In this document: positions 49 to 40,679 of the stretch, one piece after another
Layout of the letters: each line of letters begins with the position of its first letter
Numbering within the stretch: position 1 is the stretch's first letter
Assembly (NCBI GenBank): GCA_020860185.1
Contig: JAJBUT010000212.1
Span: 1-40,679, forward strand
DNA length: 40,679 nt
Origin: Lachnospiraceae bacterium
GTDB lineage: Bacteria; Bacillota; Clostridia; Lachnospirales; Lachnospiraceae
Direction: 5' to 3'
The notes under the pieces: model-generated
What the model saw: only the letters and a program-made list of their open reading frames with translations
The model's database searches: none
What the model was told of the DNA's origin: nothing
Program-made: the position numbers and the translations under genes

Positions 49-1494
49 TTAACTGAAGAACGCCGTAGCAATCGGCATGAACACGATACATACCACAAAC
101 GAAATCACTGCAAACAGAATCGTATATTTGCATGTATCCTTGATGTTCACATGTCCCGGTCCGAAGAAGAACGGAGACGGAACCGCCGCGGACGGTGTGA
201 CCGTCGCCATGCCGGCAGCGATCGCAATCATTACCGTGAATGCCGCCATATTCGTATTGCCTGTTCCGAGAAGTACGGCACCGATATTGAAGAAGAGGAC
301 CATCGTAACCGTATTCGAGAGGAAGTTCGTCATGATGATCGACAGCAGGAACAGGATGACGATAATACCGAACGTCGGCAAATTGCCGAGAACCGGCTGC
401 AAAACGTTACCCAGCCAGGTCTGGATACCGGTCGCCTCAGAGGACAGCGGTGTCGCAAACATGGACACAGTACCCGCAAAGATAAGCGGCGGCCACGGAA
501 CCTGCTTTAACGCGCTCGGCACATTCAGTATCGGTTTCCCGCCGGCCGGTACAATCGCCAGAAAAGCAATTGCCAGAATCGCCGGGACCACGACGCCGCA
601 GTCATTCAGATAGCTGAAGAAACTGGAAACACCCGACAACAGCGAAGGTGCCAGAACAAAGAAGATCACGCAGATAAACACAACTGCCGCGATAATACCA
701 TCCTTGCCGAGCGGTTTCTGCTTTGCCTTTACTTCCTCGACATTGAAATTCGTGAATTTGCTCATATCGGGATGCCAGATACGGCAGATCAACATAATCA
801 CCAGGTACATCACAAACGCATACGGCACGCCGATGGCCAGCCACTGTGCGTAGGTAATGGTAATACCAAACTGCGTCTCCAGTGAAGCGATAATAATATT
901 CGGAAGCGCATGCGCAATCGGGGAACAGATCGACAGAAGCACATTGCCGAGCATAACGCCCGTAAAGATACAGGTATAGAAAGGCTCTCCCTTCTTCACG
1001 CCCATCTCCTTACACAGAACCTCTGCGATACCGATGTAGATAACCGCCAGAGACAGGTTATCCATAAAAAGACCGATGATGACGTTGGACGCAAAGAACA
1101 TCGCCAGGAACGCGTACGGTCTGCCCTGGACAAACTTCCGGGTCACAAAGAACATCGCGATCTTATTGATAACCCCCGTCTCACTCAGACATACGTTCAG
1201 CACCATGTAAACCAGCACGGTAATCACGACAAAGTGTCCCATAGAACCGGCCCACACCTCGTTCGCCGTCATCGCCTGTGTCATAACCATCAGGCCGAGC
1301 GCCAGGATGGATACCCAGTGTGTGTTCACCGTAAGCCACAGATACAGAATCGGGATAAGGATCGCGATGACGCGGACACCCAGTTCCGTCAATCCGTTCG
1401 TCGGCTGAAGCACGGCATAAATCACGATACCGATGATCAGCGCAACCAGATAATGAATATAGTTTTTCTTGTCTGCTGCTGCCATTTTTGCCAT
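49..1494 (-). CDS. SLC13/DASS family anion (carboxylate) permease
   Basis: 481-aa highly hydrophobic ORF with DASS-like motifs (GLFMDN, SPIAHALPN, MTNFLSNT, TPSAAVP); SD AAAGGAG upstream. Confidence 0.8.
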   Translation of the reverse strand: MAKMAAADKKNYIHYLVALIIGIVIYAVLQPTNGLTELGVRVIAILIPILYLWLTVNTHWVSILALGLMVMTQAMTANEVWAGSMGHFVVITVLVYMVLNVCLSETGVINKIAMFFVTRKFVQGRPYAFLAMFFASNVIIGLFMDNLSLAVIYIGIAEVLCKEMGVKKGEPFYTCIFTGVMLGNVLLSICSPIAHALPNIIIASLETQFGITITYAQWLAIGVPYAFVMYLVIMLICRIWHPDMSKFTNFNVEEVKAKQKPLGKDGIIAAVVFICVIFFVLAPSLLSGVSSFFSYLNDCGVVVPAILAIAFLAIVPAGGKPILNVPSALKQVPWPPLIFAGTVSMFATPLSSEATGIQTWLGNVLQPVLGNLPTFGIIVILFLLSIIMTNFLSNTVTMVLFFNIGAVLLGTGNTNMAAFTVMIAIAAGMATVTPSAAVPSPFFFGPGHVNIKDTCKYTILFAVISFVVCIVFMPIATAFFS

Positions 1495-1551
1495 TTTAAA
1501 TCTCCTTTCTTTTGCAAAAAACTGTGTCTCTACTCAAAAAACAGCAAAACT

Positions 1552-1582
1552 ATTTTAGGCTATGTTCTTACTATACAGTCAA
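1552..1582 (-). promoter_or_regulatory. MerR-type promoter of SLC13 gene: TTGACT-19bp-TAAAAT with operator CTGTATAG-TAA-GAACATAG
   Basis: Read on the minus strand: ttgactgtatagtaagaacatagcctaaaat; closely resembles the promoter at 36011-36041. Confidence 0.75.
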
Positions 1583-1692
1583 TAAAAAAACAGCGATAAA
1601 AAGTGAAAAAACGGGCATTTTCGCTTAATGTCATTTCACTTTCCATCGCTGTCTTGTGCAAAATCACAAGGTTCATATTCAATTCTGTTCTG

Positions 1693-2193
1693 TTATGACT
1701 CACAAATGTCTTTTCTGACACTTATCTCATAAACAGTATCCGCATAATCCCTGAGACCGGCTCCCAGCACACGTCCCGTCAGAATGACATCCGTCTCCTC
1801 CGAACGGAGACGAAGCAGCGACAGCAGCTCCTCCTCCGATATGATGCCGTAATCCACCAGGCCCAGCACCTCATCCAGGATCAGCACGCTGCACTCTCCG
1901 GTCTGGAGCACCTTCCGGGCATAGTTCATACCGTTTTTCATGTTCATCTGCTCGTCAATCTGCCCCTGTTCATCCAGCTCCTCATAATTCCGACCGGACT
2001 TCTGAAAACGGAACACGCGGATCTCCGGTTCCAGACGCTTCAGAAAAGCGGACTCATCCTCGTTTTTCCGTTTCAGGAATTCAATGATAATGACGGAACC
2101 CAGAGCGCTCGCCTCATGTATGGCACAGCCCAGAGCAGCGGATGTCTTTCCTCTGCCATTTCCGTAATATACCTGTATCTTTCCCATGCTCAT
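1693..2193 (-). CDS. cobO: cob(I)yrinic acid a,c-diamide adenosyltransferase (CobO/BtuR family)
   Basis: IQVYYGNGRGKTSAALG P-loop, LILDEV and VILTGR motifs; SD GAGGAG. Confidence 0.85.
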   Translation of the reverse strand: MSMGKIQVYYGNGRGKTSAALGCAIHEASALGSVIIIEFLKRKNEDESAFLKRLEPEIRVFRFQKSGRNYEELDEQGQIDEQMNMKNGMNYARKVLQTGECSVLILDEVLGLVDYGIISEEELLSLLRLRSEETDVILTGRVLGAGLRDYADTVYEISVRKDICES

Positions 2194-2280
2194 GGTTTTC
2201 TCCTCTCAGATATATGCACGTTTCAAAGATAATCGTGCCTGATTGTAAGAGATTACCACATTTACTGTAAAAACACAAGC

Positions 2281-2913
2281 TTAATCCTCGGGAATCAGGT
2301 CGAGTTTATTGACAGAAACCTCATAGGCCACTCTCCGCTCCGTCTCCTCCTCGCTGATCTTTTTGACATATTCCCGGCTCTGAATACGTCCTTCCAGATA
2401 GATATGACTGCCGACCTCAAAGCCGGAAGCAAAACGGGCGTTTCTGCCCCAGCAGATACAGGGTATGTAATCGGACTTCCCATAGGAACGGTTGACCGCC
2501 AGCAGCACATCCGCGATCTCCCTTCCGAGCGGAGTTTTCCGGTAAACCGGCTCCTTACAGATAAATCCTTCCAGACAGATGAGGTTCGTATTCTCTCCGT
2601 CCTCTACCTCATCCAGGAATTCCAGTTCTCTCACAAAAACCGAGAGAACCAGCCGGTTTTTCCTCTCCTCATGTCGGTTGTAGGATCGGAACTGCCCGGT
2701 CACACGAACGATCTGTCCCATGTAATCCCGCTCCGTGTCGATCAGGCGTTCCGATATCATAAGCGGTATAAAATCGGCATTGCTGCTCAGCCGGTTCACC
2801 GCGATTTCAACCATATAAAAACCTTCTCCGTACACCTCATGACTGTAGCGGAAATCTGAAACGATCTCCCCAATCATAGACACCTGATTGTTTTCAAACA
2901 TTTTATCCGTCAT
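2281..2913 (-). CDS. ssb: Single-stranded DNA-binding protein, clostridial tandem-OB-fold type
   Basis: FRYSHEVYGEGFY, YRKTPLGREIADVLLAVNR, DYIPCICWGRNA and GRIQSREY motifs; start moved to ATG at 2913 (MTDKMFENN) after SD AAGGGAG. Confidence 0.9.
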   Translation of the reverse strand: MTDKMFENNQVSMIGEIVSDFRYSHEVYGEGFYMVEIAVNRLSSNADFIPLMISERLIDTERDYMGQIVRVTGQFRSYNRHEERKNRLVLSVFVRELEFLDEVEDGENTNLICLEGFICKEPVYRKTPLGREIADVLLAVNRSYGKSDYIPCICWGRNARFASGFEVGSHIYLEGRIQSREYVKKISEEETERRVAYEVSVNKLDLIPED

Positions 2914-4346: not shown

Positions 4347-6182
4347 ATGAAAACAACAAGAGAAGACATACGCAACATCGCGATCATCGCGCATGTTGAC
4401 CACGGGAAAACCACCCTCGTAGACAACCTGCTGAAACAGTCCGGCGTTTTCCGGGAGAACCAGGTCGTCCGGGAGCGCGTGATGGATTCGAACGATATCG
4501 AGAGGGAGAGAGGTATTACCATCCTCTCCAAAAACACAGCAGTATTTTATAAAGACACAAAAATCAACATTGTGGACACTCCCGGACATGCCGACTTCGG
4601 CGGAGAGGTAGAGCGCGTCCTGAAGATGGTGGACGGCGTGATTCTGGTCGTTGACGCCTTTGAGGGCGCCATGCCACAGACGAAATTCGTGCTGATGAAA
4701 GCGCTGGATCTGAATCTGCCGGTCATCGTCTGTATCAATAAAATCGACCGGCCGGAAGCACGGCCGGATGAAGTCATCGACGAAGTACTTGAGCTTTTCA
4801 TGGACCTCGACGCCTCAGATGAGCAGCTGGACTGCCCCTTCGTCTATGCATCTGCCAAATACGGCTATGCCACCCTGCATCCGGAGGACGAGCCAAAGGA
4901 TATGAAACCTCTGTTCGAGACCATTTTAAACTATATACCGGCTCCCACCGGAGACCCGGACGCCAACACACAGGTGCTGGTCAGCACGATCGACTACAAT
5001 GAATATGTCGGCCGAATCGCGGTCGGCAAGGTAGACAACGGCTGCATCCGGGTCAACCAGGATGCCGTCATCGTCAACGCGCACGATCCCGAAAAGCAGC
5101 GGAAAGTCCGGATCAGCAAATTATATGAATTCGACGGACTGGAGAAGGTCGATGTAAAGGATGCCCGGATCGGCTCGATCGTCGCCATCTCCGGCATCGC
5201 GGACATCCACATCGGGGATACCATCTGCGCACCGGAACATCCGGAGCCCATCCCCTTCCAGAAAATATCCGAGCCGACGATCGCGATGAACTTTCTCGTA
5301 AACGACAGCCCGCTCGCCGGACAGGAGGGCAAATACATCACCTCCCGCCATATCCGCGACCGGCTGTTTAAGGAACTGAACACCGATGTCTCTCTCCGCG
5401 TGGAGGAGACAGACAGCGCCGACTGTTTCAAAGTATCCGGACGGGGCGAGCTTCACCTCTCCGTACTGATTGAAAACATGCGCCGCGAGGGCTATGAGTT
5501 CGCCGTATCCAAGGCGGAGGTTCTCTACCACACCGACGAGAACGGCAAACGGACCGAACCGATGGAACTGGTCTATGTCGATGTGCCGGAGGAGTTTACC
5601 GGCGTCATCATCGAAAAGCTGAGCCAGCGAAAGGCGGAGCTGCAGAACATGGGCGGCATCAGCGGCGGCTACACCCGCCTCACCTTCCGCATGCCGGCGC
5701 GCGGCCTCATCGGCTACCGCGGCGACTTTCTGACGGATACGAAGGGCAACGGCATCATGAATACCATCTTCGACGGCTACGATCTCTACAAGGGAGATAT
5801 CCAGTACCGGAAGCTCGGCTCCCTCATCGCCTATGAGCCAGGCGAGTCCGTGGCCTACGGCCTGTTCTCCGCCCAGGATCGCGGCGCCCTGTTTATCGGT
5901 CCGGGCGAGCGGGTTTACTCCGGCATGGTCGTCGGACAGTGCTCCCGCTCCGAGGACATCGAGCTGAATGTCTGTAAGAAAAAGCACCTGACCAACACGC
6001 GCTCCTCCTCCGCGGACGAAGCTTTAACACTGACGCCGCCGCGAATCCTGAGCCTGGAACAGGCGCTTGATTTCATCGACACAGACGAGCTTCTGGAGGT
6101 CACGCCGGAGAGCCTGCGCATCCGCAAGAAAATCCTTGATCCGACCCTGCGGAAACGTGCCGCCATGAAGAAAAATCAATAA
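4347..6182 (+). CDS. typA: Translational GTPase TypA/BipA
   Basis: [47 protein letters not shown] and C-terminal [11 protein letters not shown]; start at ATG 4347 after GGAGG. Confidence 0.97.
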
Positions 6183-6188
6183 TCTAAA

Positions 6189-6224
6189 AAACCGACCGTC
6201 CCGCATACGCGGAACGGTCGGTTT
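6189..6224. terminator. Probable bidirectional intrinsic terminator between typA and dctQ
   Basis: Stem AAACCGACCGT(C)CCGC / GCGG(A)ACGGTCGGTTT between convergent genes, A/T-rich flanks. Confidence 0.8.
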
Positions 6225-6234
6225 ACTTTGTCTG

Positions 6235-6744
6235 TTACTCTTGTCCTTCAATAGGTTTTGCGTTCGGCAGTTCCTGAAAATACTCCAGAGCCGTCAGGAT
6301 GATCGCCAGAGTATAGACGGCGAAGCCCACACCCATGATCAGTGAAAACGGCCAGTACGGCAAATGCAGGATCTGAGACGCTTTTCCGACGGAGTAGTTC
6401 GTACTCACCTGTTTAAAAGACTGAATCGTCAGAAGCAGGCAGAAGAACGCGCACACCAGCTGCAGGATACCATTCATGGCGCAGCGCCCCTTCGGAGGCA
6501 GCTTGTTCACAAAGAGATCCACCCTTACATGGCCGTTCTCTAACTGTGTGACACCGAAGCACAGGTACATCATAATGATCATACCCAGCTCAACCATCTC
6601 CATGTTGCCCAACACACGATAGTTTGTAAACAGATGCAGAATAACGTCTATCACCGTCACAATCACGGCATACATCAGAACTACCATAGATATATACCGA
6701 ATCGCATGGCAAAATTTCTCTAACCCGGAGCGGAATTTTTTCAT
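6235..6744 (-). CDS. dctQ: TRAP transporter small permease subunit
   Basis: 4 TM segments and GHVRVDLF motif; start ATG 6744 (MKKFRSG) after AAAGGAG. Confidence 0.9.
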   Translation of the reverse strand: MKKFRSGLEKFCHAIRYISMVVLMYAVIVTVIDVILHLFTNYRVLGNMEMVELGMIIMMYLCFGVTQLENGHVRVDLFVNKLPPKGRCAMNGILQLVCAFFCLLLTIQSFKQVSTNYSVGKASQILHLPYWPFSLIMGVGFAVYTLAIILTALEYFQELPNAKPIEGQE

Positions 6745-6781
6745 AAAAACAACTCCTTTCTGGATCGCTTCATAAACACAA

Positions 6782-7942
6782 TTACTGGTTATTGGCGATG
6801 CACTCCATCGCGGTGTCATAGATGGCCTGGCCGTCATAACCCGCCGCATCCATGGACTCAATCCACTCGTCGATGGTCTGCTGAGCAACATCTTCCAGCT
6901 TCGCCCTCTCCTCATCGCTCAGGTTATAAAGCTTATCCGCTACGGCTTCCTTCACTTCCTCTTCATACTGATCCCATACTTCCGTATACTTCAGGGAATC
7001 CTCCGCAACGTCATCCAGCAGCTGCTGAAGCACTTCCGGAAGCGCATCATAGGAATCCTGGTTCATAACCATGAAGTAGGTAGAAACGCCGATGTTCTCA
7101 TCCAGATACCAGGACAGAACCTCATCCAGCGAGAAGGAATTGACTGCATGCCAGTCAGTAATGCATCCGTCAAGCGTACCCTTGTCAAGGTTGCTGTACA
7201 GATCGTTAATGGAAACAGATACCGGGTTCGCGCCGAGGTTCGTGATAAAGTCGGTCGGCGGTCCGGCATTGCCGCGCAGCTGCATGCCCACAAGATCATC
7301 CAGTGTCTCAATCTTTGTGCTGACAGTCTCAATCGCGCTCTGGCAATTGGTATGAAGCAGTAATACATGGAAGTTGGAATACTCCTCATCCATATAATCC
7401 GTAGTGTTCCAGAACTCCCAGATTGCCTGCGAACCGTTGGTCGCGCTCTGGATATCGATCAGAGGAAGCATGAACACTTCGGTTACAGGGAAGGTGTCCG
7501 CATAGAAAGACTGCAGACCCCATCCGATATCCGCGGAACCGTTCAGTACATAATCATAGGTATCCTTCGGACCCGCGAGCGTAGCTCCGTGGTAAACCTC
7601 GATGGTCAGATATCCTTCGGAAGCCTCCTCGACTGCAGCCGCAAAGTTGTTCAGGAATGTTCCAGTCGCGGAATTTTCCGGGTCATGCTGGGTCAGAGTC
7701 AGCGTATAGGTCTGATCCAGACCGCTCAGGTCATATTCGCCGACGCCAGACTCATCTTCCGCATCAGCATCCGCCTCGGCATCAGCATCCGCCTCGGCTT
7801 CCGCGGAAGTCTCCTCCGCTGCGGACTCGGTGGTATCGGTGGTGTCGCCGGAATCATCCGACGAGCTGCCGCAACCGGCCATTGCGCCCATGGACACAAC
7901 AAGCGCCCCGGCAAGTACGATAGAAATCACTTTCTTTTTCAT
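6782..7942 (-). CDS. dctP: TRAP transporter substrate-binding lipoprotein (DctP family)
   Basis: Signal peptide with lipobox MAGC, acidic linker, DLVGMQLR, GANPV, LDKGTLDG; start ATG 7942 after AAGGAGG. Confidence 0.9.
   Translation of the reverse strand: MKKKVISIVLAGALVVSMGAMAGCGSSSDDSGDTTDTTESAAEETSAEAEADADAEADADAEDESGVGEYDLSGLDQTYTLTLTQHDPENSATGTFLNNFAAAVEEASEGYLTIEVYHGATLAGPKDTYDYVLNGSADIGWGLQSFYADTFPVTEVFMLPLIDIQSATNGSQAIWEFWNTTDYMDEEYSNFHVLLLHTNCQSAIETVSTKIETLDDLVGMQLRGNAGPPTDFITNLGANPVSVSINDLYSNLDKGTLDGCITDWHAVNSFSLDEVLSWYLDENIGVSTYFMVMNQDSYDALPEVLQQLLDDVAEDSLKYTEVWDQYEEEVKEAVADKLYNLSDEERAKLEDVAQQTIDEWIESMDAAGYDGQAIYDTAMECIANNQ
7761..7796. repeat. 18-bp tandem duplication (GCATCAGCATCCGCCTCG x2) encoding the EADADA linker repeat
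   Basis: Direct read; lies within the acidic linker of DctP. Confidence 0.85.
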
Positions 7943-8018
7943 AAAATCCTCCTTCTTTTTTTTGCGTATACGGTGCACATGCGCCGTATACATTGAAATA
8001 TTGAAAACTGTATCTCCG

Positions 8019-9332
8019 TTATCCGGCGGAACCGTATAGCAGAGTAGGCAGCCCCAGTGACAGCGGTTTAATCAAAGCAACGAGAAGAACCGTCACGATC
8101 AGCGCAATGACAAATGGCACAACGCCCTTGAAAATCTTCATGATCGGAACGTCCTTTGCGATGCCGCCCATGACGTATACGCACATGCCCACCGGAGGCG
8201 TAATCAGACCCAGCTGCATGATCATTACCATCAGAACGCCGAACCACACAGTGTTCATGCCCATCTGCTGAACAATGGGCAAAAAGATCGGCGTCAGAAG
8301 CACAATCAGCGGCAGGGAATCAATAAAGCAGCCCAGCACCGCGTAGATAGCCAGAATCAGCAGGATGACCACGAGATTCGGCAGATTCGACGCTGCGATT
8401 CCGTTTGCCAGAGTGGTCGGGATCCGGGAAATTGTAAGGAAGTAACCGAATATGTACGCGCCTACCATGATCATGAAAATCATGCAGGACGTCCGCAACG
8501 TATCCGCCAGAGACTTCCGGATATTCTCCCAGCTCGCCTTTCTCTTTCCAATGAGGAACAGAAGCGCGATAAACGCTCCGACAGCAGCACCCTCGTTCGC
8601 GCTGAAAATACCGCTGAAGATACCGCCGAGCACGATCACGAACAGGATCAGAATCGGGATAACGCCCTTGAGCGACTGCATCTTTTCCTGCATGCTAACC
8701 TTTTCGCCCTTCGGCGCCAGGTCAGGATTCATCTTAACCTGAATCATGATGGTCATGACATAGATCGCGGCCAGCAGAATACCCGGGATAATACCCGCGG
8801 CAAACATCGTGCCGATCGACTCTTCCGCCGCAATGGCATACAGGATGAATCCCGTACTGGGCGGAATCAGGATGCCCAGCGTACCGCCCGCTGCTATGGA
8901 GCCGCAGGCCAGCGTGTCCTTATAGCCATATTTCCTCATCTCCGGCAGGCAGACAACGCCGAGCGTGGCGGTGGTGGCTGTCGAGGAACCGCAGATCGCC
9001 GCAAAAAACGCGCACGCCACGATCGTCGCGGAAGAAAGACTTCCCGGAACCCGTCCGATCCATTTATGGCAGAATGCATATAGATCCTGACTGATCCCGG
9101 CATAAAAGGCGAACTGCCCCATCAACACAAACAATGGAATTACCGAGTAGGAATAATTCGCGATCGTACTGAACGGCACAGACGAAAACAATCCCATCGC
9201 GCCTTTCATATTGACAATAATCGCGTAACCGAAGAACCCTACCACGACCATCGTGAAACCGATATTCATGCCCATGAACAGCAGAATCAGCAGCACGATG
9301 ACACCAATAACTCCAATCACCAATGGACTCAT
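8019..9332 (-). CDS. dctM: TRAP transporter large permease subunit
   Basis: IPLFVLMG, FAAICGSS, GTLGILIPPS and GLITPPVG motifs; 437 aa. Confidence 0.95.
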   Translation of the reverse strand: MSPLVIGVIGVIVLLILLFMGMNIGFTMVVVGFFGYAIIVNMKGAMGLFSSVPFSTIANYSYSVIPLFVLMGQFAFYAGISQDLYAFCHKWIGRVPGSLSSATIVACAFFAAICGSSTATTATLGVVCLPEMRKYGYKDTLACGSIAAGGTLGILIPPSTGFILYAIAAEESIGTMFAAGIIPGILLAAIYVMTIMIQVKMNPDLAPKGEKVSMQEKMQSLKGVIPILILFVIVLGGIFSGIFSANEGAAVGAFIALLFLIGKRKASWENIRKSLADTLRTSCMIFMIMVGAYIFGYFLTISRIPTTLANGIAASNLPNLVVILLILAIYAVLGCFIDSLPLIVLLTPIFLPIVQQMGMNTVWFGVLMVMIMQLGLITPPVGMCVYVMGGIAKDVPIMKIFKGVVPFVIALIVTVLLVALIKPLSLGLPTLLYGSAG

Positions 9333-9515
9333 AAGCTCTCTCTCCTTTCTGTAAAACAGCCATTTCTGTTCTTTTTTTGAATAAAAAATACTCCCTGTTC
9401 AGACTTTTCTCAAAAGCCTGATTATGAAATCAGCAACCTCCTTTCTTACTATACCGTACGTCCTGTATCTGTATGATTTACATACGGCATGTATTCGTAC
9501 CTCTACTCATTCAAA

Positions 9516-9546
9516 ATCATAGTCTGTATAGTTACTATACATTCAA
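9516..9546 (-). promoter_or_regulatory. MerR-type promoter of TRAP operon: TTGAAT-19bp-TATGAT with operator ATGTATAG-TAA-CTATACAG
   Basis: Minus strand ttgaatgtatagtaactatacagactatgat. Confidence 0.8.
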
Positions 9547-9715
9547 GCACTTTCTGACCAGTAACCGGATTTTCATGAGATATTGCATAAATATTTTTTA
9601 AGTTTTTTTATTTTTTTGTTCAAATTGTACATGTATTTTTTTTAATACATCTATTGACATTTTTTTGTCTGTATAGTTCTCACAAATGTATACGTAAATT
9701 TCCGGCGTGAAAACA

Positions 9716-9777
9716 CAGATACGCACCGGCACAGCTCCCGACTATCATCCATCGGTCACCGTCCGGTGCGTATCTGA
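9716..9777 (-). terminator. Stem-loop downstream of lpdC (terminator or 3' stabiliser)
   Basis: Perfect 14-bp inverted repeat CAGATACGCACCGG / CCGGTGCGTATCTG with a large loop, followed by TGTTTT on the minus strand. Confidence 0.6.
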
Positions 9778-11350: not shown

Positions 11351-11382
11351 AGTATAACACTGTATAGCTGATATACAGATAT
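11351..11382 (-). promoter_or_regulatory. lpdC promoter: extended -10 (TGTTATACT) with operator CTGTATAT-CAG-CTATACAG; poor -35
   Basis: Dyad at 11360-11378; -10 at 11351-11356 on the minus strand. Confidence 0.7.
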
Positions 11383-11462: not shown

Positions 11463-11492
11463 TTGACTGTATAGCGCTATACAGATTATAAT
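11463..11492 (+). promoter_or_regulatory. lpdB/ubiX promoter: TTGACT-18bp-TATAAT with perfect palindrome CTGTATAGCGCTATACAG
   Basis: Direct read; palindrome at 11467-11484. Confidence 0.85.
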
Positions 11493-29068: not shown

Positions 29069-29125
29069 AGGAACTGTCCTGAAATAACCTGCGCCAGATG
29101 TGTATATTATTTCAGGACGGTTCCT
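29069..29125. other. Long intergenic stem-loop between moeA and moaA
   Basis: 19-bp inverted repeat AGGAACTGTCCTGAAATAA / TTATTTCAGGACGGTTCCT with one mismatch. Confidence 0.7.
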
Positions 29126-29143
29126 TAGTAGCGAATTATAACA

Positions 29144-30361: not shown

Positions 30362-30367
30362 TTATCC

Positions 30368-30973
30368 TTACTCTCCCATTGCCAGTGATTGTCCGACAGA
30401 ATAAGCGTGCGTTTTCAATCCGCGATTGTTTTCCGCCGCTTCAGGGTCATTTCCCCCGACACAGACAATCCGTTTCTCATCTGCAAAACCAAACCCGGGG
30501 AAGACGGCTGCAAGATAATCAAAATACATGGAAAACATATTCGGATCTTCATTGTCCTGCGTATAGACCGTGACAATCTTCTTCTGTCCGTACCTCGGAG
30601 TGCCGTCCAACCCAATTAATGGAAAAAGCCTGTCATACAGGTTTTTCACCATACCGCTCACCTGCATAAAATAAACCGGGGATCCTATTACTACAGCATC
30701 CGCATCCTTTACTTCTTTCAAGGCTTTGCTGAGCTCATCGTCCACCAGACAACACCAGTCTTTTTTAGCCACATCATACTTATCTTCTACCATAGTACCT
30801 TCTCCGACACGACAGGCAAAACAACCCTGACAGGCCATAGCACGCATCTTGAACAACGTATAACTTTTAACTTCAGCATTATGCTCTTTTGCGCCGCGCT
30901 CAATCATTTGCAGAATCGTGGCTGTATTGCCGTCCATTCTTGGACTCCCATTAAATATTACTACTTTTTTCAT
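30368..30973 (-). CDS. Flavodoxin-like NAD(P)H-dependent FMN reductase / iron-sulfur flavoprotein
   Basis: NGSPR-x2-GNT, CQGCFAC...C, ADAVVIGSPVYF and K-x3-DR. Confidence 0.88.
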   Translation of the reverse strand: MKKVVIFNGSPRMDGNTATILQMIERGAKEHNAEVKSYTLFKMRAMACQGCFACRVGEGTMVEDKYDVAKKDWCCLVDDELSKALKEVKDADAVVIGSPVYFMQVSGMVKNLYDRLFPLIGLDGTPRYGQKKIVTVYTQDNEDPNMFSMYFDYLAAVFPGFGFADEKRIVCVGGNDPEAAENNRGLKTHAYSVGQSLAMGE

Positions 30974-31152: not shown

Positions 31153-31974
31153 TTAGAACTCGATATAATCAAGATTCAGTGATTCACCGGCAATCTCGAC
31201 ATCAATATCCTTTTTATTGCCGGCCGCATCAATGCTGATCACATACTTGCCGTCGTCAAGTCCGTCGAACTTGAAGTCGCCAAAGAAGTTCGTCTTCTGC
31301 GAATCGACCAGCACGCCGTCCTTCCTGAGCTCGATGGTGGCGTTCTCGTAGCAGTCTCTGTTCACAAGAATACCGCCAGCCACAAAATTCTTGGTGAACT
31401 TATAGAGGTTCTTGTAATATACATGTGGATTCAGACCTAACTCCGGTCTGTAAACCTCAAGCTTCTCCGTCTCGATCATCGCCTGCATCTCGAGCGGATC
31501 AAGATGATATGCCTGGAATGTCTTTGTCGGGCAGGAGTGAACACACCTCGGTACACCGGGCTTCCAATCCGGATCATCAAGCAAATGAGCACACATGGTA
31601 CACTTCTGTGCAACATCTTTTTCATCGTTGTAATAAACCGCACCGTAAGGACACATGGAAGCCACTTCCTTATGACCTCTTGCCTTATCCATATCGATCA
31701 GGACAATGCCGTCGTCTCTTCTGGTCGCATATCCGGCCGCTACAAGAGGACATTTCTCACAATGCTGGCAGGGCATTGAGAGATATACATAATCATTACG
31801 CGCGTATCTGCCGCGCTCTCTGCGCATTACATTCACCCAGCGATGTCCGTGACGCGGCTGAGACTCCGTATAACCGGGCCATTCATTTCCAACGTGCTCA
31901 TCTTTGCAGGACATAAGGCAGTTGTTGCAGTCATGACACCATCTGATATCGTGTACTAAATACCACTGTTTCAT
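31153..31974 (-). CDS. bthL: Pyrogallol hydroxytransferase (transhydroxylase) small Fe-S subunit
   Basis: C-x2-CNNC-x3-C-x-DEH-x2-NEWPGYT, HRW, RRERG, DGIVLID, CPYG, AQKCTMCAHLLDD and TNFFG-x-FKFD with C-terminal beta-barrel; matches the remembered P. acidigallici beta subunit along its length. Confidence 0.92.
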   Translation of the reverse strand: MKQWYLVHDIRWCHDCNNCLMSCKDEHVGNEWPGYTESQPRHGHRWVNVMRRERGRYARNDYVYLSMPCQHCEKCPLVAAGYATRRDDGIVLIDMDKARGHKEVASMCPYGAVYYNDEKDVAQKCTMCAHLLDDPDWKPGVPRCVHSCPTKTFQAYHLDPLEMQAMIETEKLEVYRPELGLNPHVYYKNLYKFTKNFVAGGILVNRDCYENATIELRKDGVLVDSQKTNFFGDFKFDGLDDGKYVISIDAAGNKKDIDVEIAGESLNLDYIEF

Positions 31975-32007: not shown

Positions 32008-34608
32008 TTAATAAATCTCGTAGATACCTCCGTCCCATTTTTCTACTTCAACCTGAGCACTGTTCGGCGCCATACCACACGCATACTTGGACATGTAGCG
32101 ATCCGGTGTCAGGATATTCACGCACCCGCCGCGGTCTGCGGAGCATCCCGGTTTGCCGAGCGGAGCATACTCCGCGCAGGACTCATAGGAGTGAACGGTA
32201 CCGGGCTGTACGCGCTCGCCCACCTGTGCACAGAGAATTACGGATCCTCTGTCGTTGAACGCGCGAACCAGGTCGCCGTCCTTGATGCCGCGGGCTTTCG
32301 CGTCAACGGAATTCATACGAATGATCCAGTAATACCAGCCGTCAACCAGTACACGGTGATCCTTGATATCCAGCATGAAGGAATCCTTCGCGTCGCCCAT
32401 CGTATGGAAGGAGAATCTGGGATGAGGTGAAAGCATGCCGAGAGGATACTTCTTCGCAACCTCCGCGTGCCAACTCTCCCATGCCGGTACATACTTATGC
32501 ATGGCCGGACGATATTCATCAATATAACCCTGCTCCTCGAAACGAGATAAGCTGGTAGAGATAAACTCAATCTTTCCTGTCGTCGTCTGCAGGCCCTTTA
32601 AGCCGACAGACTGGTTCGGAGCGGGACCCCAGTCCGGAGTATCGCGCTCACGGTTCTCGGCGAACCAGCGGAATGCAACAGTCTTCTTGCGGTTCGGGTT
32701 GATCGGAACAACCATGTAACCCTTCTTGAAGAACTCATCAAACGTCATAACCTGCGGACAGTCTGTCGCGTTGTAATACTGTCTTACCCAGTCAAGCTCA
32801 TCCTTGCCCTCAGAGAAAATTTCATAAATGCCGAGCTTCTTGGACATCAGCGCGTAAATCTCATAGTCAGACATGGACTCGCCCAGCGGCTCGATACACT
32901 TTGCCTGCAGGGAGATCACGCGGTTGTTTGCTGTCTGATAGGTATCCGGAATGTAGCCGGAGCAGTTACCGAACTCGGAGATGTCCCAGCGCTCATAGTT
33001 CGTGCAGGCCGGAAGGATAACGTCCGCGAACATAACCTCGCCCTCGTTCCAGATCGACTGGCTCACTACAAACTCAAGCGTATCGGAGTGATACATCTTT
33101 GCGTAGCGGTTCGTCGCCGTCATCGTGCCGATATGCGGTCCGCCGTACTTCCAGTACATCTTGATCTTGCCGTAGCCCGGAGCCGGATACTGATACGGAT
33201 GCATCTGCGCCTCAATGGAAGCACCGCAGAATCCCTTGCCATACCACTCGAACTTGCCGTTCATGATACACTCCGGAATCTTCAGACGCGGAATGTGCTG
33301 ACCGGCCTCCCAGTTTACCTTGACCGGAGCCGGGAAGGTCGTGCGGCCGTCGAACATACGCCATGCGAACTTATAGCCCGCAGCAGAGTTGCAGCAGTCG
33401 CCGGAAATACCGCCGTCCGCGTAGCCCGGGAAGAAGAAATCATAGTCTACCGGCACGCCCTGTGTGGTGGACCAGATGTTGGAACCCGGCTTGCCCATGC
33501 CCTGCATTGTCGCAAGAGCGATCATACCGCGGGTCCACTCAATACCGTGCGTCGCACGACATGCGCCGCCCCAGCCGCCGAGTCCGCCGGCTGCAAGGTA
33601 TGTATTCTTCTTCGCCCACTCACGCGCCAGCGCACGAATCTCACAGGCAGGAACACCGGACTCTTTCTCAGCCCACTCACAGGTCTTCGGGTAATTATCC
33701 TCACCCTTGCCTAATACATACTCAGCCCACTCCTCAAAACCGTAGGCATGAGTCGCTACATACTCTTTGTCATATGTACCCTCTGTCAGCCAGGTGTATG
33801 CGATCGCGAAAGAAATCGCATGATCCGTACCAACCTTCGGGGACATCCACTTCATGCCCCACATATTCGCGGAATGGTTGAAGAAAGGATCAATAAATAC
33901 CATCTGAACACCGAGCTCATCAAGCCAGCGACGTCTGATATGTGACTCGTACGCAGCGTACAGTCCGCTGTTTACCTCCGGATCAGAAGACCAGAACACG
34001 ATCAGATCCGCATATTTCAGACCATCCTCAAGCAGATCGTACTGCTCCGGGTTTCCGAGTCTCCAGGAAAATCCCCACATATGCATGCCGCCCCAATGCC
34101 AGCCTTCCCAGCTGTCCGGGTTGTGATCCGCATAGGTGAATCCCATGAGGTTCATGAAACGGAAATAGGTGGAGTGACGGTAACCTACATTACCCCATAA
34201 GTGGTGAGAAGACGGTGTGGACATGATGGATGCCGGGCCGCTCTCTCTTTTGATTCGATTGACTTCGTTCGCGACAATGTCGGTTGCCTCGTCCCAGCTG
34301 ATTCTCTCATATCCTGAAATACCGCGGTTCTGGATATTTCTCTCACCGTTCGGGTCGAAGTCAACACGCTTCATCGGATACAGATTGCGGCGATCAGAAT
34401 AAATCATGGACTTCTGGCCGGCCGTGAACGGCTGAATCGTCGTATACCTGGGCGCCTTGAACACTCTGCCTCTCGCCTCGATTGTCCAGCCCTCCGGATC
34501 GGTCTCATCAAAGTCCATCGGTGTAATGCGGATAATCTTTCCATCCTTAACATATACGAACACCGGACCGCCGGTACTGGAGTTTGTTAAACGAATTTCG
34601 CCTTGCAT
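32008..34608 (-). CDS. athL: Pyrogallol hydroxytransferase (pyrogallol-phloroglucinol transhydroxylase) large Mo-bis-MGD subunit
   Basis: 866 aa from ATG 34608 (SD AAAGGAGG). RLTNSSTGGPVFVYVKDGKIIR, STPSSHH-x-WGNVGYRHSTYFRF, HNPDSWEGWHWGGMHMWGFSWRLGNPEQYDLLEDG, FPGYA, NCSGYIPD and terminal YEIY match the remembered P. acidigallici alpha subunit; no Tat signal. Confidence 0.95.
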   Translation of the reverse strand: MQGEIRLTNSSTGGPVFVYVKDGKIIRITPMDFDETDPEGWTIEARGRVFKAPRYTTIQPFTAGQKSMIYSDRRNLYPMKRVDFDPNGERNIQNRGISGYERISWDEATDIVANEVNRIKRESGPASIMSTPSSHHLWGNVGYRHSTYFRFMNLMGFTYADHNPDSWEGWHWGGMHMWGFSWRLGNPEQYDLLEDGLKYADLIVFWSSDPEVNSGLYAAYESHIRRRWLDELGVQMVFIDPFFNHSANMWGMKWMSPKVGTDHAISFAIAYTWLTEGTYDKEYVATHAYGFEEWAEYVLGKGEDNYPKTCEWAEKESGVPACEIRALAREWAKKNTYLAAGGLGGWGGACRATHGIEWTRGMIALATMQGMGKPGSNIWSTTQGVPVDYDFFFPGYADGGISGDCCNSAAGYKFAWRMFDGRTTFPAPVKVNWEAGQHIPRLKIPECIMNGKFEWYGKGFCGASIEAQMHPYQYPAPGYGKIKMYWKYGGPHIGTMTATNRYAKMYHSDTLEFVVSQSIWNEGEVMFADVILPACTNYERWDISEFGNCSGYIPDTYQTANNRVISLQAKCIEPLGESMSDYEIYALMSKKLGIYEIFSEGKDELDWVRQYYNATDCPQVMTFDEFFKKGYMVVPINPNRKKTVAFRWFAENRERDTPDWGPAPNQSVGLKGLQTTTGKIEFISTSLSRFEEQGYIDEYRPAMHKYVPAWESWHAEVAKKYPLGMLSPHPRFSFHTMGDAKDSFMLDIKDHRVLVDGWYYWIIRMNSVDAKARGIKDGDLVRAFNDRGSVILCAQVGERVQPGTVHSYESCAEYAPLGKPGCSADRGGCVNILTPDRYMSKYACGMAPNSAQVEVEKWDGGIYEIY

Positions 34609-34759: not shown

Positions 34760-34790
34760 ATTGTAAGCTGTATTGTCACCATACAGTCAA
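34760..34790 (-). promoter_or_regulatory. MerR-type promoter of athL-bthL: TTGACT-19bp-TACAAT with operator CTGTATGG-TGA-CAATACAG
   Basis: Minus strand ttgactgtatggtgacaatacagcttacaat. Confidence 0.82.
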
Positions 34791-34819: not shown

Positions 34820-35737
34820 CTAAAAATCTCTCTTGGCGTGAAGATTGGAGTATTTCTGTGCATATATGTAAAAATCATTCAGCGCCGGGTTTTTGTTTTT
34901 GTTCTTGCGGACGAGCTGCATGGAAAGATACTTCTGCGGGACGTCCTCCTCGATGGGAATAAAACGGAGGTTCATATTCGATGTCACCTCATCCTCCTCA
35001 AACACCAGGGATACGCCCTCGCCCATCTCGATCGCCAGCAGCAGCTCCTCAAAATCCTCAAACTCAGCCGACACCTTCGGCACAAAATCAAAAGCCGCAC
35101 ATATATTATGAAGGTAATCATCCTCCGGCTTCAGTTTCATCGGAAGATAGCGCAGAAACGGGCTGTCCTTAAAATCGGAAAGCTTCACATCCCTCTTGCG
35201 GAACAGCGGATGGCTCTTGTGGATCACAATACCGACCCGGGAATAAAATAAGGTAGCTTTCTCGACACCCTGCACCATCTTCACATCGTGGTCGGCGATC
35301 AGGATTGCGTCGTAATAATCGTTCATCAGCCCCTCGACCAGCTTCCGCTGCGTGCAGCGCTCCTTCATGATCTGGATCTCCGGACGATCCTCGCGAAACC
35401 CGGACAGCACCTGTGAGATATAGCTGTTGGACTTGATGTGCTCCTGACAGCCGATCGAGATGCCGCCGCTGAACTTCTTGACGGAGTTCTTCGCGCGGGC
35501 CAGCGCATTCTGCCACTCGGTTACCATCTGCGAGAGCGTCTCCGCCAGCATCTGACCCTGGATCGTCAGCCGCACCCCCTTCGTGTTACGGTCAAACAGC
35601 GGCAGACCGAGCTCCTCCTCCAGAGAAGCGATCTGCCTGCTGATATTCGACTGGGAGATAAACAGTCCCTTCGCCGCCTTCGTGAAACTCAGGTGCGTCG
35701 CCACCTCGAGAAAACACTTTATCTGTAAATCGGTCAT
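34820..35737 (-). CDS. LysR-family transcriptional regulator
   Basis: LSFTKAA-x2-LFISQSNISRQI-x2-LEEELG-x2-LF-x-R...LT-x2-G; 305 aa. Confidence 0.95.
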   Translation of the reverse strand: MTDLQIKCFLEVATHLSFTKAAKGLFISQSNISRQIASLEEELGLPLFDRNTKGVRLTIQGQMLAETLSQMVTEWQNALARAKNSVKKFSGGISIGCQEHIKSNSYISQVLSGFREDRPEIQIMKERCTQRKLVEGLMNDYYDAILIADHDVKMVQGVEKATLFYSRVGIVIHKSHPLFRKRDVKLSDFKDSPFLRYLPMKLKPEDDYLHNICAAFDFVPKVSAEFEDFEELLLAIEMGEGVSLVFEEDEVTSNMNLRFIPIEEDVPQKYLSMQLVRKNKNKNPALNDFYIYAQKYSNLHAKRDF

Positions 35738-35811
35738 AATACAATCAGTCTCCTTAGTTCATGGGATATTTTGCATAAAAACATGAAAAAAACGAAATCT
35801 ATTTTATCAAC

Positions 35812-35840
35812 ATTATACTGTATTCTAAGAATACAGTCAA
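35812..35840 (-). promoter_or_regulatory. lysR promoter: TTGACT-17bp-TATAAT containing the perfect dyad CTGTATTC-TTA-GAATACAG
   Basis: Minus strand ttgactgtattcttagaatacagtataat. Confidence 0.82.
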
Positions 35841-36010: not shown

Positions 36011-36041
36011 TTGACTGTATAGTAGGAATACACTGTAAAAT
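36011..36041 (+). promoter_or_regulatory. MerR-type promoter of sodium:solute symporter: TTGACT-19bp-TAAAAT with operator CTGTATAG-TAG-GAATACAC
   Basis: Direct read ttgactgtatagtaggaatacactgtaaaat. Confidence 0.8.
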
Positions 36042-36084: not shown

Positions 36085-37650
36085 ATGGCTTTAGTAATTG
36101 CTATTGTGTACTTTGCTGTGCTGATCTTCATCGCCAGTATGTACTCAAGAAAACGTGTAAAATCCGCTGAGGATTTTGCAAACGCGGGCGGCGGCCTCGG
36201 ATGGATCATGGTGACATTTTCCTTCGTACTCGCACCGCTCGGATCCGGTCACACGATGTCACTCTGGGAGAAGGCAGCAGGTGCCGGCGGCATCACCAGT
36301 CTGCTGGATTTCACCGGCATCGGTGCGGGCGCCATGTGGTGGGCACTCGGCGCAGGCGGTGTGTTCCTTCCTATCGCGATGCTCTGGATGGGACCCCTTT
36401 ATAAGAAGATCGGACAGCCGACGGCTCCGGCCGCTCTCGGCAAGATTTTCGGTAAGAAGATGGGCTATTTCCATGCGGCGTTCCAGACTATGACCTGGAC
36501 CGGCATCGGCATGTCTGAGCTGGTTGCCATCGGTACGGCGATCTACACGCTGTGTCAGGCCAGCGGCATCAACCTCGGTCTGTACGCATCCATCATTCTC
36601 GGCTTTGTCCTGATCATCTGCTATGTATACTTCGGCGGTATGCTTCAGATGGCATGGCTGAACTGTATCAACGCGGTCGTCATGCTCGGCGCGTCCTACG
36701 CAGCCATTGCGATCATCGCCGGCAGCTATCTGTCCGATTACTTCGGCGCTGACGTCGGCTTCTGGGCAGGCGTAAAGCAGGCCTATGACGCAGCTGGATA
36801 CAGCAGTGTTCTGACACAGACCGGTACGATCACGCAGCTTCCGATCTGGCTGTCCGTAATCATCCCGGTTATCGTATTACATACGACAGCCGGCGCCGTA
36901 TCCCAGACCATGATGCAGCCGTTCTTCGCGGCGAAGAGCCAGAAGGACTGCCGCAAGGGCGTCTTCCTCGGCTGCTCCCTGAACATTATGTCCAGCCTTC
37001 CGTGGATCTTCCTCGGTATCGCTGCCATGTCCATCCCGACCATCTCCTCTGTTGTAGGCGCGAACGGCATCGAAGCTGTTCCGACGATTGCTCAGCAGGG
37101 ACTTCCGATTCCGGCGATCGGACTGCTGATGGTAGCTCTTCTCTGTGCGACTCTTTCCACCGGCGGCGGCGTTGTTATGGCAAACTCGAACGTTATCGCA
37201 AACGATATCGTGATCGGCTGCAACTGCCCGGATGCCACTCCCGAGAAGAAGCTTCGCATCAACAAGATCTGCATCATCATCGCAGCGGCGATCATCCTTC
37301 CGGGTGCTCTGATCATGGCTCACGAGTTCGTGTTCAACCTGTTCCTATGGGTGTTCTCGTTTGGTATGCCAATCTTCGTGGTGTTTATCATCGGGTACAA
37401 TTTCAAGGTCAGCAGAAAAGCAGCCTGGTGCACGGTTATCGTTACGTATATCCTGAACTGCATCTGGACATTTGTTGACCTGTCCCCGTGGCTCGGCGGT
37501 GTATGGTCCATGAACATGTACATCACGATGGTTGCTTCCGTCATTCTCGGCGTTGTCTTCCACCTCATCTTCAAGGGTGAGCCGGCATGGAAGAAGACTC
37601 ATGCGGACATTATCGCAGCCAACGACGCGAAAGAAGCGCAGGTAGCATAA
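36085..37650 (+). CDS. Sodium:solute symporter (SSS/SLC5) family protein
   Basis: About 13 TM segments; DF-x-NAGG-x-L, YVYFGG, Q-x4-QPFFAAKS and A-x-LST...S-x4-ND; SD AAGGAGGT. Confidence 0.9.
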   Translation: MALVIAIVYFAVLIFIASMYSRKRVKSAEDFANAGGGLGWIMVTFSFVLAPLGSGHTMSLWEKAAGAGGITSLLDFTGIGAGAMWWALGAGGVFLPIAMLWMGPLYKKIGQPTAPAALGKIFGKKMGYFHAAFQTMTWTGIGMSELVAIGTAIYTLCQASGINLGLYASIILGFVLIICYVYFGGMLQMAWLNCINAVVMLGASYAAIAIIAGSYLSDYFGADVGFWAGVKQAYDAAGYSSVLTQTGTITQLPIWLSVIIPVIVLHTTAGAVSQTMMQPFFAAKSQKDCRKGVFLGCSLNIMSSLPWIFLGIAAMSIPTISSVVGANGIEAVPTIAQQGLPIPAIGLLMVALLCATLSTGGGVVMANSNVIANDIVIGCNCPDATPEKKLRINKICIIIAAAIILPGALIMAHEFVFNLFLWVFSFGMPIFVVFIIGYNFKVSRKAAWCTVIVTYILNCIWTFVDLSPWLGGVWSMNMYITMVASVILGVVFHLIFKGEPAWKKTHADIIAANDAKEAQVA

Positions 37651-39535: not shown

Positions 39536-39552
39536 CCCGTACCTCCTGACAG

Positions 39553-39900
39553 TCAATATAAAATATCCCAGTCTGTCGGGAAACGCTGCACACCGATCAA
39601 CATGCCGTCGGTAATTTTGCGATAATTCTCACCAATGGTGTATCCCATCTTGTTCATATCTTCCTCAATATACCGAATCATTTTATGATTGTTCGGCACC
39701 GCCTTGTATTCCTCCGGCGGAAGCACACCATGCTTTTCATGTTCACTGTAGAAAGCGATATTGCAGGTCTCCGGACTGTTCCATATCCGGAAATAACCGA
39801 TTCCCTTGTCCTCATACTTAAATTCAAACCGCATCACCTGAAACACGGAATATCTCTCAAGCATCTCCCAGTGAATTTTCACCTGTTTTAATTCAGCCAT
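39553..39900 (-). CDS. Hypothetical protein (115 aa)
   Basis: SD AAAGAGGT before ATG; fills the gap before moaC; AT-richer than neighbours; no family recognised. Confidence 0.7.
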
Positions 39901-39925
39901 ATTTTACCTCTTTTTTACTTTAATA

Positions 39926-40007
39926 GAGCAAGAGGCAGCTTTTACCTCATACTCGTTGCGCGGGGCGCGTGCAGCAAAACCGCAAAATTTCCTTACGCGC
40001 GCCTGTG
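39926..40007 (-). repeat. 82-bp structured intergenic repeat, copy B (inverted relative to copy A)
   Basis: Minus strand CACAGGCGCGCGTAAGGAAATTTTGCGGTTTTGCTGCACGCGCCCCGCGCAACGAGTATGAGGTAAAAGCTGCCTCTTGCTC. Confidence 0.85.
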
Positions 40008-40050
40008 AATATCTTATGATAGCTCGGATTGCTTCCGCAATCCTGCATCA

Positions 40051-40679
40051 TCATTTTCCAAAACCGCAATTGGGGAAGGTACACACGCCGCAGTTCAGGC
40101 ATAGTCCGCCCTCGCCCAGACCCGCAATATCCTCCTGCGTGATCTCATCGTCCGCCAGCACGCGCGGCAGAACCAGATCAAAAATCGTGCGCTTTGCGTA
40201 CATCACGCAGCCGGGCAGACCCAGAATCGGAATCTGACGGCCTTCCTTCTCGTAATAGGAGACAAGCATCATCGCGCCCGGAAGGACCGGCGCTCCATAG
40301 GTGATAATGCGTGCGCCGGTATTCATGATGGCGCCCGGCGTGCAGTCGTCCGGGTCAACGCTCATACCGCCGGTGCAGATCACCAGCTCCGCGCCCGCGT
40401 CCAGCTGTTTGAAGATCGCCTCCGTGATATGCTCCTTCTCATCGTCCACATAGATCTGACCGATGACCTCGCAGCCGTACTCCTCCACCTTTGCGTAGAT
40501 GACCGGACCGAAGGTGTCTTTAATCCGTCCCTTGAACACCTCGCTGCCGGTGGTGACGATCCCGACCCTTTTCTTCTGAATCGGAAGGACATCGAAAAGC
40601 GGCGTCTCGCCCGCCGCCCTCTTCGCAGCCTCCATTTTATCCTTTTCGATCACAAGCGGAAGGATCCGGGTCTCTGGGA
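40051..40679 (-). CDS. Molybdopterin-binding (MoeA-like) protein, 5' end beyond the window
   Basis: TTGSEV-x2-GRI-x-D-x-F, TGGMSVDPDD-x-TP, YGAPVLPG-x-M, GLPGCVM and GGLC-x2-C-x2-C-x-FP-x-C-x-FGK; frame open to the window edge. Confidence 0.88.
   Translation of the reverse strand, partial: PETRILPLVIEKDKMEAAKRAAGETPLFDVLPIQKKRVGIVTTGSEVFKGRIKDTFGPVIYAKVEEYGCEVIGQIYVDDEKEHITEAIFKQLDAGAELVICTGGMSVDPDDCTPGAIMNTGARIITYGAPVLPGAMMLVSYYEKEGRQIPILGLPGCVMYAKRTIFDLVLPRVLADDEITQEDIAGLGEGGLCLNCGVCTFPNCGFGK

Follow-up and report, generated by a model that had tools for sequence, protein, structure and literature searches.

How can an anaerobe keep a gallate-degrading pathway under common control when the genes of that pathway lie apart from one another? 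The question is raised by the DNA analysed here, a stretch of 40,679 nucleotides (the window) that is the whole of one contig (C189) of a Lachnospiraceae genome (G000; 2.5 Mb, 222 contigs, 91% complete), whose nearest named relatives are Lachnospiraceae/Clostridiales metagenome-assembled genomes, Brotonthovivens and Eubacterium oxidoreducens. An original prediction had placed lpdC, ubiX and lpdD, the pair athL-bthL, molybdenum cofactor (Moco) genes and three transporters in this stretch, and family scans covering 35 window open reading frames (ORFs) recovered all of them at the positions claimed. In our reading, which we consider likely, the genome encodes an E. oxidoreducens-type gallate route, the upper-pathway and transporter genes of which share a palindrome inside a 19-bp promoter spacer, and this palindrome would be read by the window's own BmrR-type MerR protein. 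The argument draws on what was established directly: the identity of the genes, their diagnostic residues, the geometry of the motif, conservation, and co-occurrence.

Decarboxylation of gallate would fall to lpdC/aroY (9803-11272, minus strand, start picked by ribosome-binding site), a UbiD-family gallate/protocatechuate decarboxylase dependent on prenylated flavin mononucleotide (prFMN). LpdC scores 638 bits against the AroY 3,4-dihydroxybenzoate decarboxylases 5O3N/5NY5, with the next group at 223, and is 78% identical to the sole homologue in E. oxidoreducens. The flavin prenyltransferase gene ubiX/lpdB (11570-12130, plus strand), above the TIGR00421 cut-off and with a 66% identical orthologue in E. 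oxidoreducens, is predicted to supply prFMN. The lpdD homologue (12231-12665, minus strand; PF21758) encodes 144 amino acids matching the LpdD structures 8P4W/8PZH/8PO5 in the Protein Data Bank (PDB) at E 2e-5; we take LpdD to be a prFMN chaperone. A UbiD protein of the AroY clade with both UbiX and LpdD partners is the combination that marks an LpdBCD/AroY decarboxylase. A search for tannase gave no signal, and its control was likewise silent.

The following step is assigned to athL (32008-34608, minus strand, 866 amino acids), the large subunit of a Mo-bis-MGD pyrogallol-phloroglucinol transhydroxylase, and to the adjoining bthL (31153-31974, minus strand), its Fe-S subunit. AthL matches chain A of the Pelobacter acidigallici enzyme (4V4C_A) end to end at 1622 bits, the next family reaching 236, while BthL matches 4V4C_B at 338 bits and carries 12 cysteines in three [4Fe-4S] motif groups. 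The original prediction had named a grouping with other DMSO-reductase-family clades as an outcome that would speak against this assignment. In a FastTree phylogeny of 166 distinct aligned AthL-family proteins, rooted on three alphaproteobacterial matches at 52-53%, AthL lies far from the DMSO/TMAO reductases and groups with P0114 (support 0.95-0.96; 78% identity), which stood in for the P. acidigallici protein in place of the PDB sequence (2050 bits to 4V4C, near-identical). AthL keeps all 12 pocket residues (S143, H144, Y152, R153, D174, S175, W176, W354, Y404, F468, C557 and Y560), positions that we take to be the active site, with Ser175 as the Mo ligand, and whose numbering was verified on P0114. 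We infer that AthL-BthL would make phloroglucinol from pyrogallol with 1,2,3,5-tetrahydroxybenzene. The E. oxidoreducens orthologues are 88% (athL) and 68% (bthL) identical and share the gene neighbourhood (SSS, lysR, athL, bthL, fld and gntR). The family is patchy, being present in 6 of 24 genus genomes and absent from all 400 further genomes sampled across the order. In other loci lpdC-DASS (L036) or pgr-tfd-dpgc-tal (L032 and L037) stand directly upstream of athL, a synteny that joins parts scattered in the window genome.

Phloroglucinol reductase and dihydrophloroglucinol hydrolase are indeed missing from the window, as had been noted, and two ways out had been offered, enzymes encoded elsewhere or excretion of phloroglucinol. 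A search of the rest of the genome located both on contig C54 in the order SDR, 3-hydroxyacyl dehydrogenase, cyclase, BKACE (these four at 5771-9736), gntR and phosphate acyltransferase (phosphate butyryltransferase-like); the cyclase and BKACE genes are the only ones of their kind in the genome. Against PDB 5G4K, a structure listed as an SDR oxidoreductase that we take to be the Clostridium phloroglucinol reductase (PGR), the SDR reaches 420 bits. The cyclase (DPGC) has Trp20/Tyr22 and the BKACE protein (TAL) has Trp15, with Trp replacing Glu14; the diagnostic residues given for Clostridium scatologenes in the available part of PMC10470551 are Trp20/Tyr22 for DPGC and Trp16 for TAL. The E. 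oxidoreducens orthologues are 88% (DPGC) and 87% (TAL) identical, and the same part of PMC10470551 lists E. oxidoreducens as a phloroglucinol degrader requiring H2 or formate. The genome also holds thiolase, 3-hydroxybutyryl-CoA dehydrogenase, acyl-CoA dehydrogenase and molybdate ABC genes, as well as two formate dehydrogenase alpha subunits. With pgr-tfd-dpgc-tal on C54 there is no need to invoke excretion; this cluster, the supporting genes and the adjacency of the separated parts in other genomes make complete fermentation the better reading. Separately, four phloretin/DAPG-hydrolase-family loci occur on C33, C31, C129 and C73 (the last in two pieces), which suggests a polyphenol specialist.

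Three transporters may feed this route. A DASS-family anion symporter (49-1494, minus strand; PF00939/TIGR00785) is predicted to take up gallate or hydroxybenzoate; it directly follows lpdC in E. oxidoreducens (orthologue 59% identical), G005, G013 and G042. The TRAP transporter (6235-9332, minus strand) comprises dctM (8019-9332), dctP (6782-7942) and dctQ (6235-6744), and such a set stands beside ubiX-merR-lysR-athL in locus L027. An SSS sodium:solute symporter (36085-37650, plus strand), conserved beside athL and 75% identical to its E. oxidoreducens orthologue, is predicted to import pyrogallol or gallate. Activities, transporter substrates, MerR binding, effector and direction of control are predicted from sequence in the scheme that we propose. 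The substrate would enter through DASS, TRAP or SSS; LpdC, its prFMN supplied by UbiX and LpdD, would decarboxylate gallate to pyrogallol; and AthL-BthL, with Mo-bis-MGD and recycled 1,2,3,5-tetrahydroxybenzene as co-substrate, would convert pyrogallol to phloroglucinol. Pgr, DPGC, TfD and TAL would then yield acetoacetate and acetoacetyl-CoA and from these acetate and butyrate, with extra reductant likely coming from formate dehydrogenase, and MerR would activate the upper-pathway and transporter promoters upon gallate or a related phenol.

What appears to hold these modules together is a palindrome, TTGA-CTGTATAG-N3-CTATACAG, overlapping the -35 box at eight promoters (DASS, dctM, lpdC, ubiX, lpdD, athL, lysR and SSS). 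A shared operator tying the enzymes to the transporters had been proposed, and the proposal held: the eight promoters depart from TTGACTGTATAG-N3-CTATACAG by 0-4 mismatches in 20 positions, a fit seen in 1 of 300 AT-rich background windows. Because this consensus was derived from the window sites, independent support lies in conservation in other genomes. None of 11 further regions tested (mobAB, moaC, fld, moaA, merR, rbsB, dapL, pgr, athL2, tetR2 and MOSC) carried the operator. Three of the genome's seven sites with at most 2 mismatches at a 3-nt centre lie in the window, which is 1.6% of the genome, with Markov controls at 0-1; the genome's single perfect site with a 2-nt centre, that of ubiX, is also in the window. 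When centre spacings of 0-6 nt were scanned, 3 was enriched, plus 2 at ubiX, and no others, and a LexA-like 16-bp box was dropped on this ground.

The promoters themselves are found at 1552-1582 for DASS (minus strand, TTGACT-19 bp-TAAAAT), 9516-9546 for TRAP (minus, TTGAAT-19 bp-TATGAT; conserved in G009, G017 and G023), 11351-11382 for lpdC (minus, a weak -35, a 20-bp spacer and TGn-TATACT), 11463-11492 for ubiX (plus, TTGACT-18 bp-TATAAT, a perfect palindrome with a 2-nt centre, identical in G009, G017 and G023), 12712-12742 for lpdD (minus, TTGCGT-19 bp-TATAGT), 34760-34790 for athL (minus, TTGACT-19 bp-TACAAT; conserved before E. oxidoreducens athL), 35810-35840 for lysR (minus, spacer 17 or 19 bp) and 36011-36041 for SSS (plus, TTGACT-19 bp-TAAAAT). 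The left palindrome arm overlaps the TTGACT -35 box, the spacer measures 19-20 bp at 6 of the 8 promoters, and the palindrome centre falls 7-8 bp past the -35 end. Sites of MerR proteins, as described in the available parts of PMC5045206, PMC9909328 and PMC7722741, likewise have their palindrome inside a 19-20-bp spacer, and PMC5045206 puts its centre 8 bp from the -35 end.

This geometry recurs outside the window. In 65 loci of relatives the best -10 lies at 19 bp in 30 of 38 distinct sites, compared with 14 of 139 background genome promoters, 79 of which have it at 17 bp. Across 65 distinct sites (129 pooled loci), the -10 positions T, A and T at 19 bp, which lay outside the search pattern, are kept in 62, 63 and 63. 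Of 28 genomes searched with a strict pattern, 9 gave a match, almost all of these being athL-positive, and the reversed-pattern control gave 0. In E. oxidoreducens, operators with 19-bp promoters stand upstream of athL and at either side of the merR2/lpdC intergenic region. Many 4-mismatch matches in the genome, including the one before athL2, and one in L173 were rejected as copies of a dispersed CTGTGAAGGTACTGAACAG repeat; this short palindromic repeat, with core TAACTGTGAAGGTACTGAACAGTTA, has at least 20 copies on many contigs (for example C178:1882 and C156:15112). A near-perfect operator (1 core mismatch) at C128:205-227 has no -10 at 19 bp; a large surface-protein-like ORF begins some 740 nt downstream.

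Which protein would read these sites? Our candidate, which the original prediction had not named, is a BmrR/BltR-type MerR (21357-22328, plus strand), the predicted activator of the regulon, which has an N-terminal MerR helix-turn-helix (HTH), a coiled coil and a GyrI-like ligand domain. Between residues 5 and 258 it gives a profile match to BmrR at E 5e-27, the isolated ligand domain 1BOW is matched too, and its predicted model (pLDDT 80) is closest to BmrR, EcmrR, BrlR and GyrI. An orthologue of at least 60% identity is present in 5 of 6 athL-positive versus 0 of 18 athL-negative genus genomes, a tally made for this one of the genome's four MerR-domain genes; the match in G009 was reported with two stops. 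The exception, G021, is athL-positive without MerR and also lacks lpdC, has a stop codon in athL and carries decayed operators. All 7 athL/MerR genomes with DNA upstream of lpdC (G043 had none available) have the operator beside it, versus 0 of 6 athL-negative ones. The athL of G021 (C13:7228-9828, L158) is broken by TAG at the Trp176 column; this genome lacks AthL2 as well. The regulon may be on its way out here, or the assembly may be in error.

The association extends to metagenomes, where loci were picked with MerR similarity as the sole criterion and the best 80 of 327 collapsed to 30 groups. In 17 of these, lpdC/ubiX-type genes are present, and 13 of the 17 have the operator, typically as merR-site-lpdC, with 0 for the reversed-pattern control. 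The other 13 groups include 6 with a match, before a distant UbiD, a DASS and a DUF554 gene (one each), before unrelated genes (two variants) and in a dispersed repeat (one). In the largest group, which comprises 38 loci, TTGACT-19-TATTAT stands between merR and lpdC and the palindrome is weaker. The E. oxidoreducens orthologue of the window MerR is 53% identical. From co-occurrence and synteny, we infer that the window MerR binds the shared operators. More broadly, we think it probable that a repurposed BmrR/BltR-type MerR subfamily serves as a gallate/hydroxybenzoate sensor across gut and sediment anaerobes, one that would activate UbiD decarboxylases everywhere and command a multi-locus regulon in these Lachnospiraceae and in E. 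oxidoreducens.

Several observations weigh against this interpretation. Since some unrelated genes (a P-type ATPase region, L244 and L249) have variant sites before them, at MerR homologues of 35-36% identity, the motif is in part a family-level one. The MerR gene lies 9-13 kb from the nearest sites and has no site of its own; it is one of four MerR-domain genes in the genome, the other three being at most 37% identical over the HTH alone, and the two or three MerR paralogues in E. oxidoreducens, G005, G013, G042 and G043 could share the motif. The genus genomes are kin, and their counts are therefore not independent. Two promoters depart from the common spacing, that of ubiX with 18 bp and that of lysR with 17 or 19 bp, and the strict pattern misses G013, which has athL and MerR, and matches once in athL-negative G004, where a MerR match of 48-51% lies in two pieces. 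As to the chemistry, no MoaE was found in the genome (91% complete), AroY/LpdC enzymes also accept protocatechuate, and the best PDB matches of LpdC carry protocatechuate decarboxylase names, a preference for one or the other acid being inseparable by sequence. Haddock and Ferry reportedly described in 1993 a gallate-induced transhydroxylase and a constitutive decarboxylase in E. oxidoreducens, which would fit the site at athL and not tight control of lpdC.

Other explanations of the same facts were weighed against these. The pathway could be as described and the palindrome be bound by GntR (27364-28053) or LysR (34820-35737) as a repressor over the -35 box; both genes are kept beside athL in Lachnospiraceae including E. 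oxidoreducens, and TGTATA-type half-sites are presumably akin to GntR-family motifs. We nevertheless find this unlikely, since the distant merR-site-lpdC loci among those best 80 have no gntR homologue and mostly no lysR, G021 has kept lysR while MerR is gone and the sites have decayed to 5 mismatches, athL-negative genomes with LysR beside lpdC have no site, and a fixed 19-bp spacer is a MerR hallmark (available parts of PMC9909328 and PMC7722741). Nor need gallate be the key substrate: LpdC might act mainly on protocatechuate or other hydroxybenzoates, with MerR giving a general hydroxybenzoate response to which athL was added. The nearest structures of LpdC, protocatechuate decarboxylases, are in keeping with this, as is the lack of a nearby athL at most metagenome merR-lpdC loci (again among the best 80 of 327), and with four phloretin-hydrolase-family loci and DPGC in 22 of 24 genus genomes, phloroglucinol can derive from flavonoids. 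However, the same operator stands on athL in most relatives, lpdC-DASS adjoins athL in L036, window-type lpdC (at least 87% identity) is confined to athL-positive genus genomes, and catechol would have no evident onward route in the cluster; we hold this alternative to be improbable.

A chance or chimeric juxtaposition, the motif being a mere common promoter sequence, could be argued from the housekeeping genes typA, glnA, guaB and dapL that split the modules and from the fragmented assembly of 222 contigs. This idea is largely refuted and in our view hardly tenable, given that G023:C61 is colinear with the window over 9226-40672, that the strict pattern is mostly confined to athL-positive genomes and has no control matches, and that canonical promoters in the genome peak at 17 bp and not 19. 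The MerR-read regulon remains our preferred explanation; neither GntR nor LysR accounts as well for the co-occurrence and synteny.

A second pair, athL2-bthL2, which the original prediction had not seen, lies nearby, on contig C178, which abuts the right end of the window as judged from the colinearity with G023:C61. There (C178:2333-5945) tetR, a MOSC gene and a moaB/mogA-like gene come next after the pair, which has no MerR operator. AthL2 is 63% identical to the window AthL (AthL1) and 62% to P0114, has a C-terminal extension of about 65 amino acids, and falls in a separate clade of 33-34 sequences (support 0.996-0.998) with the changes F554W, N556S, C557N and I561N. The separate clade and altered pocket (Cys557 to Asn) speak against AthL2 as a bona fide pyrogallol transhydroxylase. 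AthL1 and AthL2 are both present in 7 of 31 genus genomes and AthL2 alone in none (co-occurrence being counted within the genus plus three named genomes), and athL2 is directly downstream of athL-bthL in loci L040-L043. E. oxidoreducens (90%) and P. paucivorans (83%) also have AthL2 but Brotonthovivens does not, and the protein is therefore no universal requirement. In P. paucivorans (L154:1431-12168, G043:C31), athL2-bthL2 precedes a six-gene membrane operon related to energy-converting hydrogenases and resembling complex I/hydrogenase, the large subunit of which has no CxxC nickel motifs; this placement hints at net redox chemistry. The transhydroxylase requires a tetrahydroxybenzene co-substrate (available part of PMC13039779), and AthL2-BthL2 might prime it, for instance as a pyrogallol hydroxylase, a suggestion from sequence that we regard as tentative and rather unlikely. 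A transhydroxylase or dehydroxylase for another benzenetriol is an alternative candidate. That the MerR sensor and a redox-partner or other-benzenetriol role of AthL2 are both correct is likewise a long shot.

The enzymes themselves have known counterparts. The route was said to be known from E. oxidoreducens, and strain DSM 3217 carries orthologues of almost every gene: athL, bthL, fld, gntR, lysR, SSS, lpdC, ubiX, DASS, pgr, tfd, dpgc, tal, merR and athL2. Its gene order is shuffled and a second MerR stands next to lpdC, whereas a single such MerR is encoded in the window genome, together with a TRAP system. With every lower and upper enzyme family found, this is known chemistry in a new genome. 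Compared with P. acidigallici AthL/BthL (EC 1.97.1.2, PDB 4V4C-E), the full-length match, clade, Ser175, pocket and three Fe-S motifs are shared, but the host is a Firmicute, a second paralogue pair lies nearby and one BthL motif is CxxCxxC instead of CxxCxxxxC, a variant common to 10 close relatives. The C54 cluster has all four families of the C. scatologenes PGR-DPGC-TfD-TAL set adjacent, with the diagnostic Trp/Tyr kept (available part of PMC10470551), and continues with gntR and the phosphate butyryltransferase-like gene; it differs in lying on a separate contig and in having no MerR operator. The UbiD, UbiX and LpdD trio is common to Lactiplantibacillus plantarum LpdBCD and enterobacterial AroY; here the three genes are separately promoted under a MerR-type operator. 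The L. plantarum gallate system is under a LysR-type regulator. Bacillus subtilis BmrR/BltR share with the window MerR the HTH, coiled coil, GyrI-like domain and palindrome in a 19-20-bp spacer, and we take the window operator geometry to be akin to that of the blt operator. Identity to BmrR is, however, about 18%, and the predicted targets are catabolic enzymes and importers at no fewer than eight promoters, not an adjacent efflux pump.

The MerR-type catabolic regulon is probably undescribed so far, the enzymes being known. We found no MerR regulator of gallate or phenolic-acid decarboxylation in the open literature, most subscription papers being outside the reach of that search, and Table 1 in the available part of PMC9909328 lists no MerR for phenolic catabolism. 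The BltR-subfamily study Zharov 2011, cited in the available part of PMC5045206, may already hold the motif, and these genomes could already appear in supplementary tables, whether those of PMC10470551 or those of annotation tools. For anaerobic gallate/tannin fermentation, the open literature searched describes no regulator, and our analysis offers a named protein and a precise operator that are testable in the culturable E. oxidoreducens DSM 3217. The L. plantarum system stops at pyrogallol (available part of PMC13039779), and the operator or regulon may serve as a marker splitting such organisms from pyrogallol fermenters, gene-level markers (pgthAB, PGR) being already used in microbiome work (available part of PMC12203004). 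If true, the reading would take multidrug-type MerR activators beyond efflux and into catabolism and make this MerR a candidate gallate or phenolic biosensor, and AthL2 would be a concrete candidate for how the transhydroxylase co-substrate first arises.

The Moco genes of the window are moaA, moeA, mobAB, moaC and a truncated MoeA-like ORF. Their presence bears out the predicted supply of bis-MGD, but not a supply dedicated to the transhydroxylase, since mobAB and moaC have no operator and two formate dehydrogenases and AthL2 also need Moco. The mobA-mobB fusion (19955-21121, plus strand), for MGD formation, stands alone; flavodoxin-like (30368-30973), moeA, moaA, gntR and a 231-amino-acid hypothetical (26678-30973, minus strand) likely form the distal part of the athL operon by co-transcription; and moaC, a 115-amino-acid hypothetical and the MoeA-like ORF cut by the contig end (39047-40679, minus strand) run on into the C178 block with its moaB/mogA-like, MOSC, tetR and athL2-bthL2 genes. 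Four Mo/W-bis-MGD enzymes are encoded although no MoaE was found. The Moco genes have a MOSC gene in their midst, and C160 and C22 carry additional MoeA paralogues. The flavodoxin-like gene is next after bthL in most AthL1 loci, Deltaproteobacteria included, and its product might act as an electron partner when the transhydroxylase is activated or primed. The two hypotheticals (26678-27373 and 39553-39900) gave no Pfam, NCBIfam or usable Atlas match; many relatives, E. oxidoreducens among them, conserve them together with the athL/moa genes.

Rfam and ARAGORN scans of the window gave no match. An MFS gene (12845-14041) was left out of the system, as it comes after dapL. The stretch 15330-17225 holds glnA, then an ANTAR-domain regulator and dapL, housekeeping genes unrelated to the finding, and hisA (17315-18100) belongs to the eukaryote-like type, scoring above the TIGR02129 cut-off.

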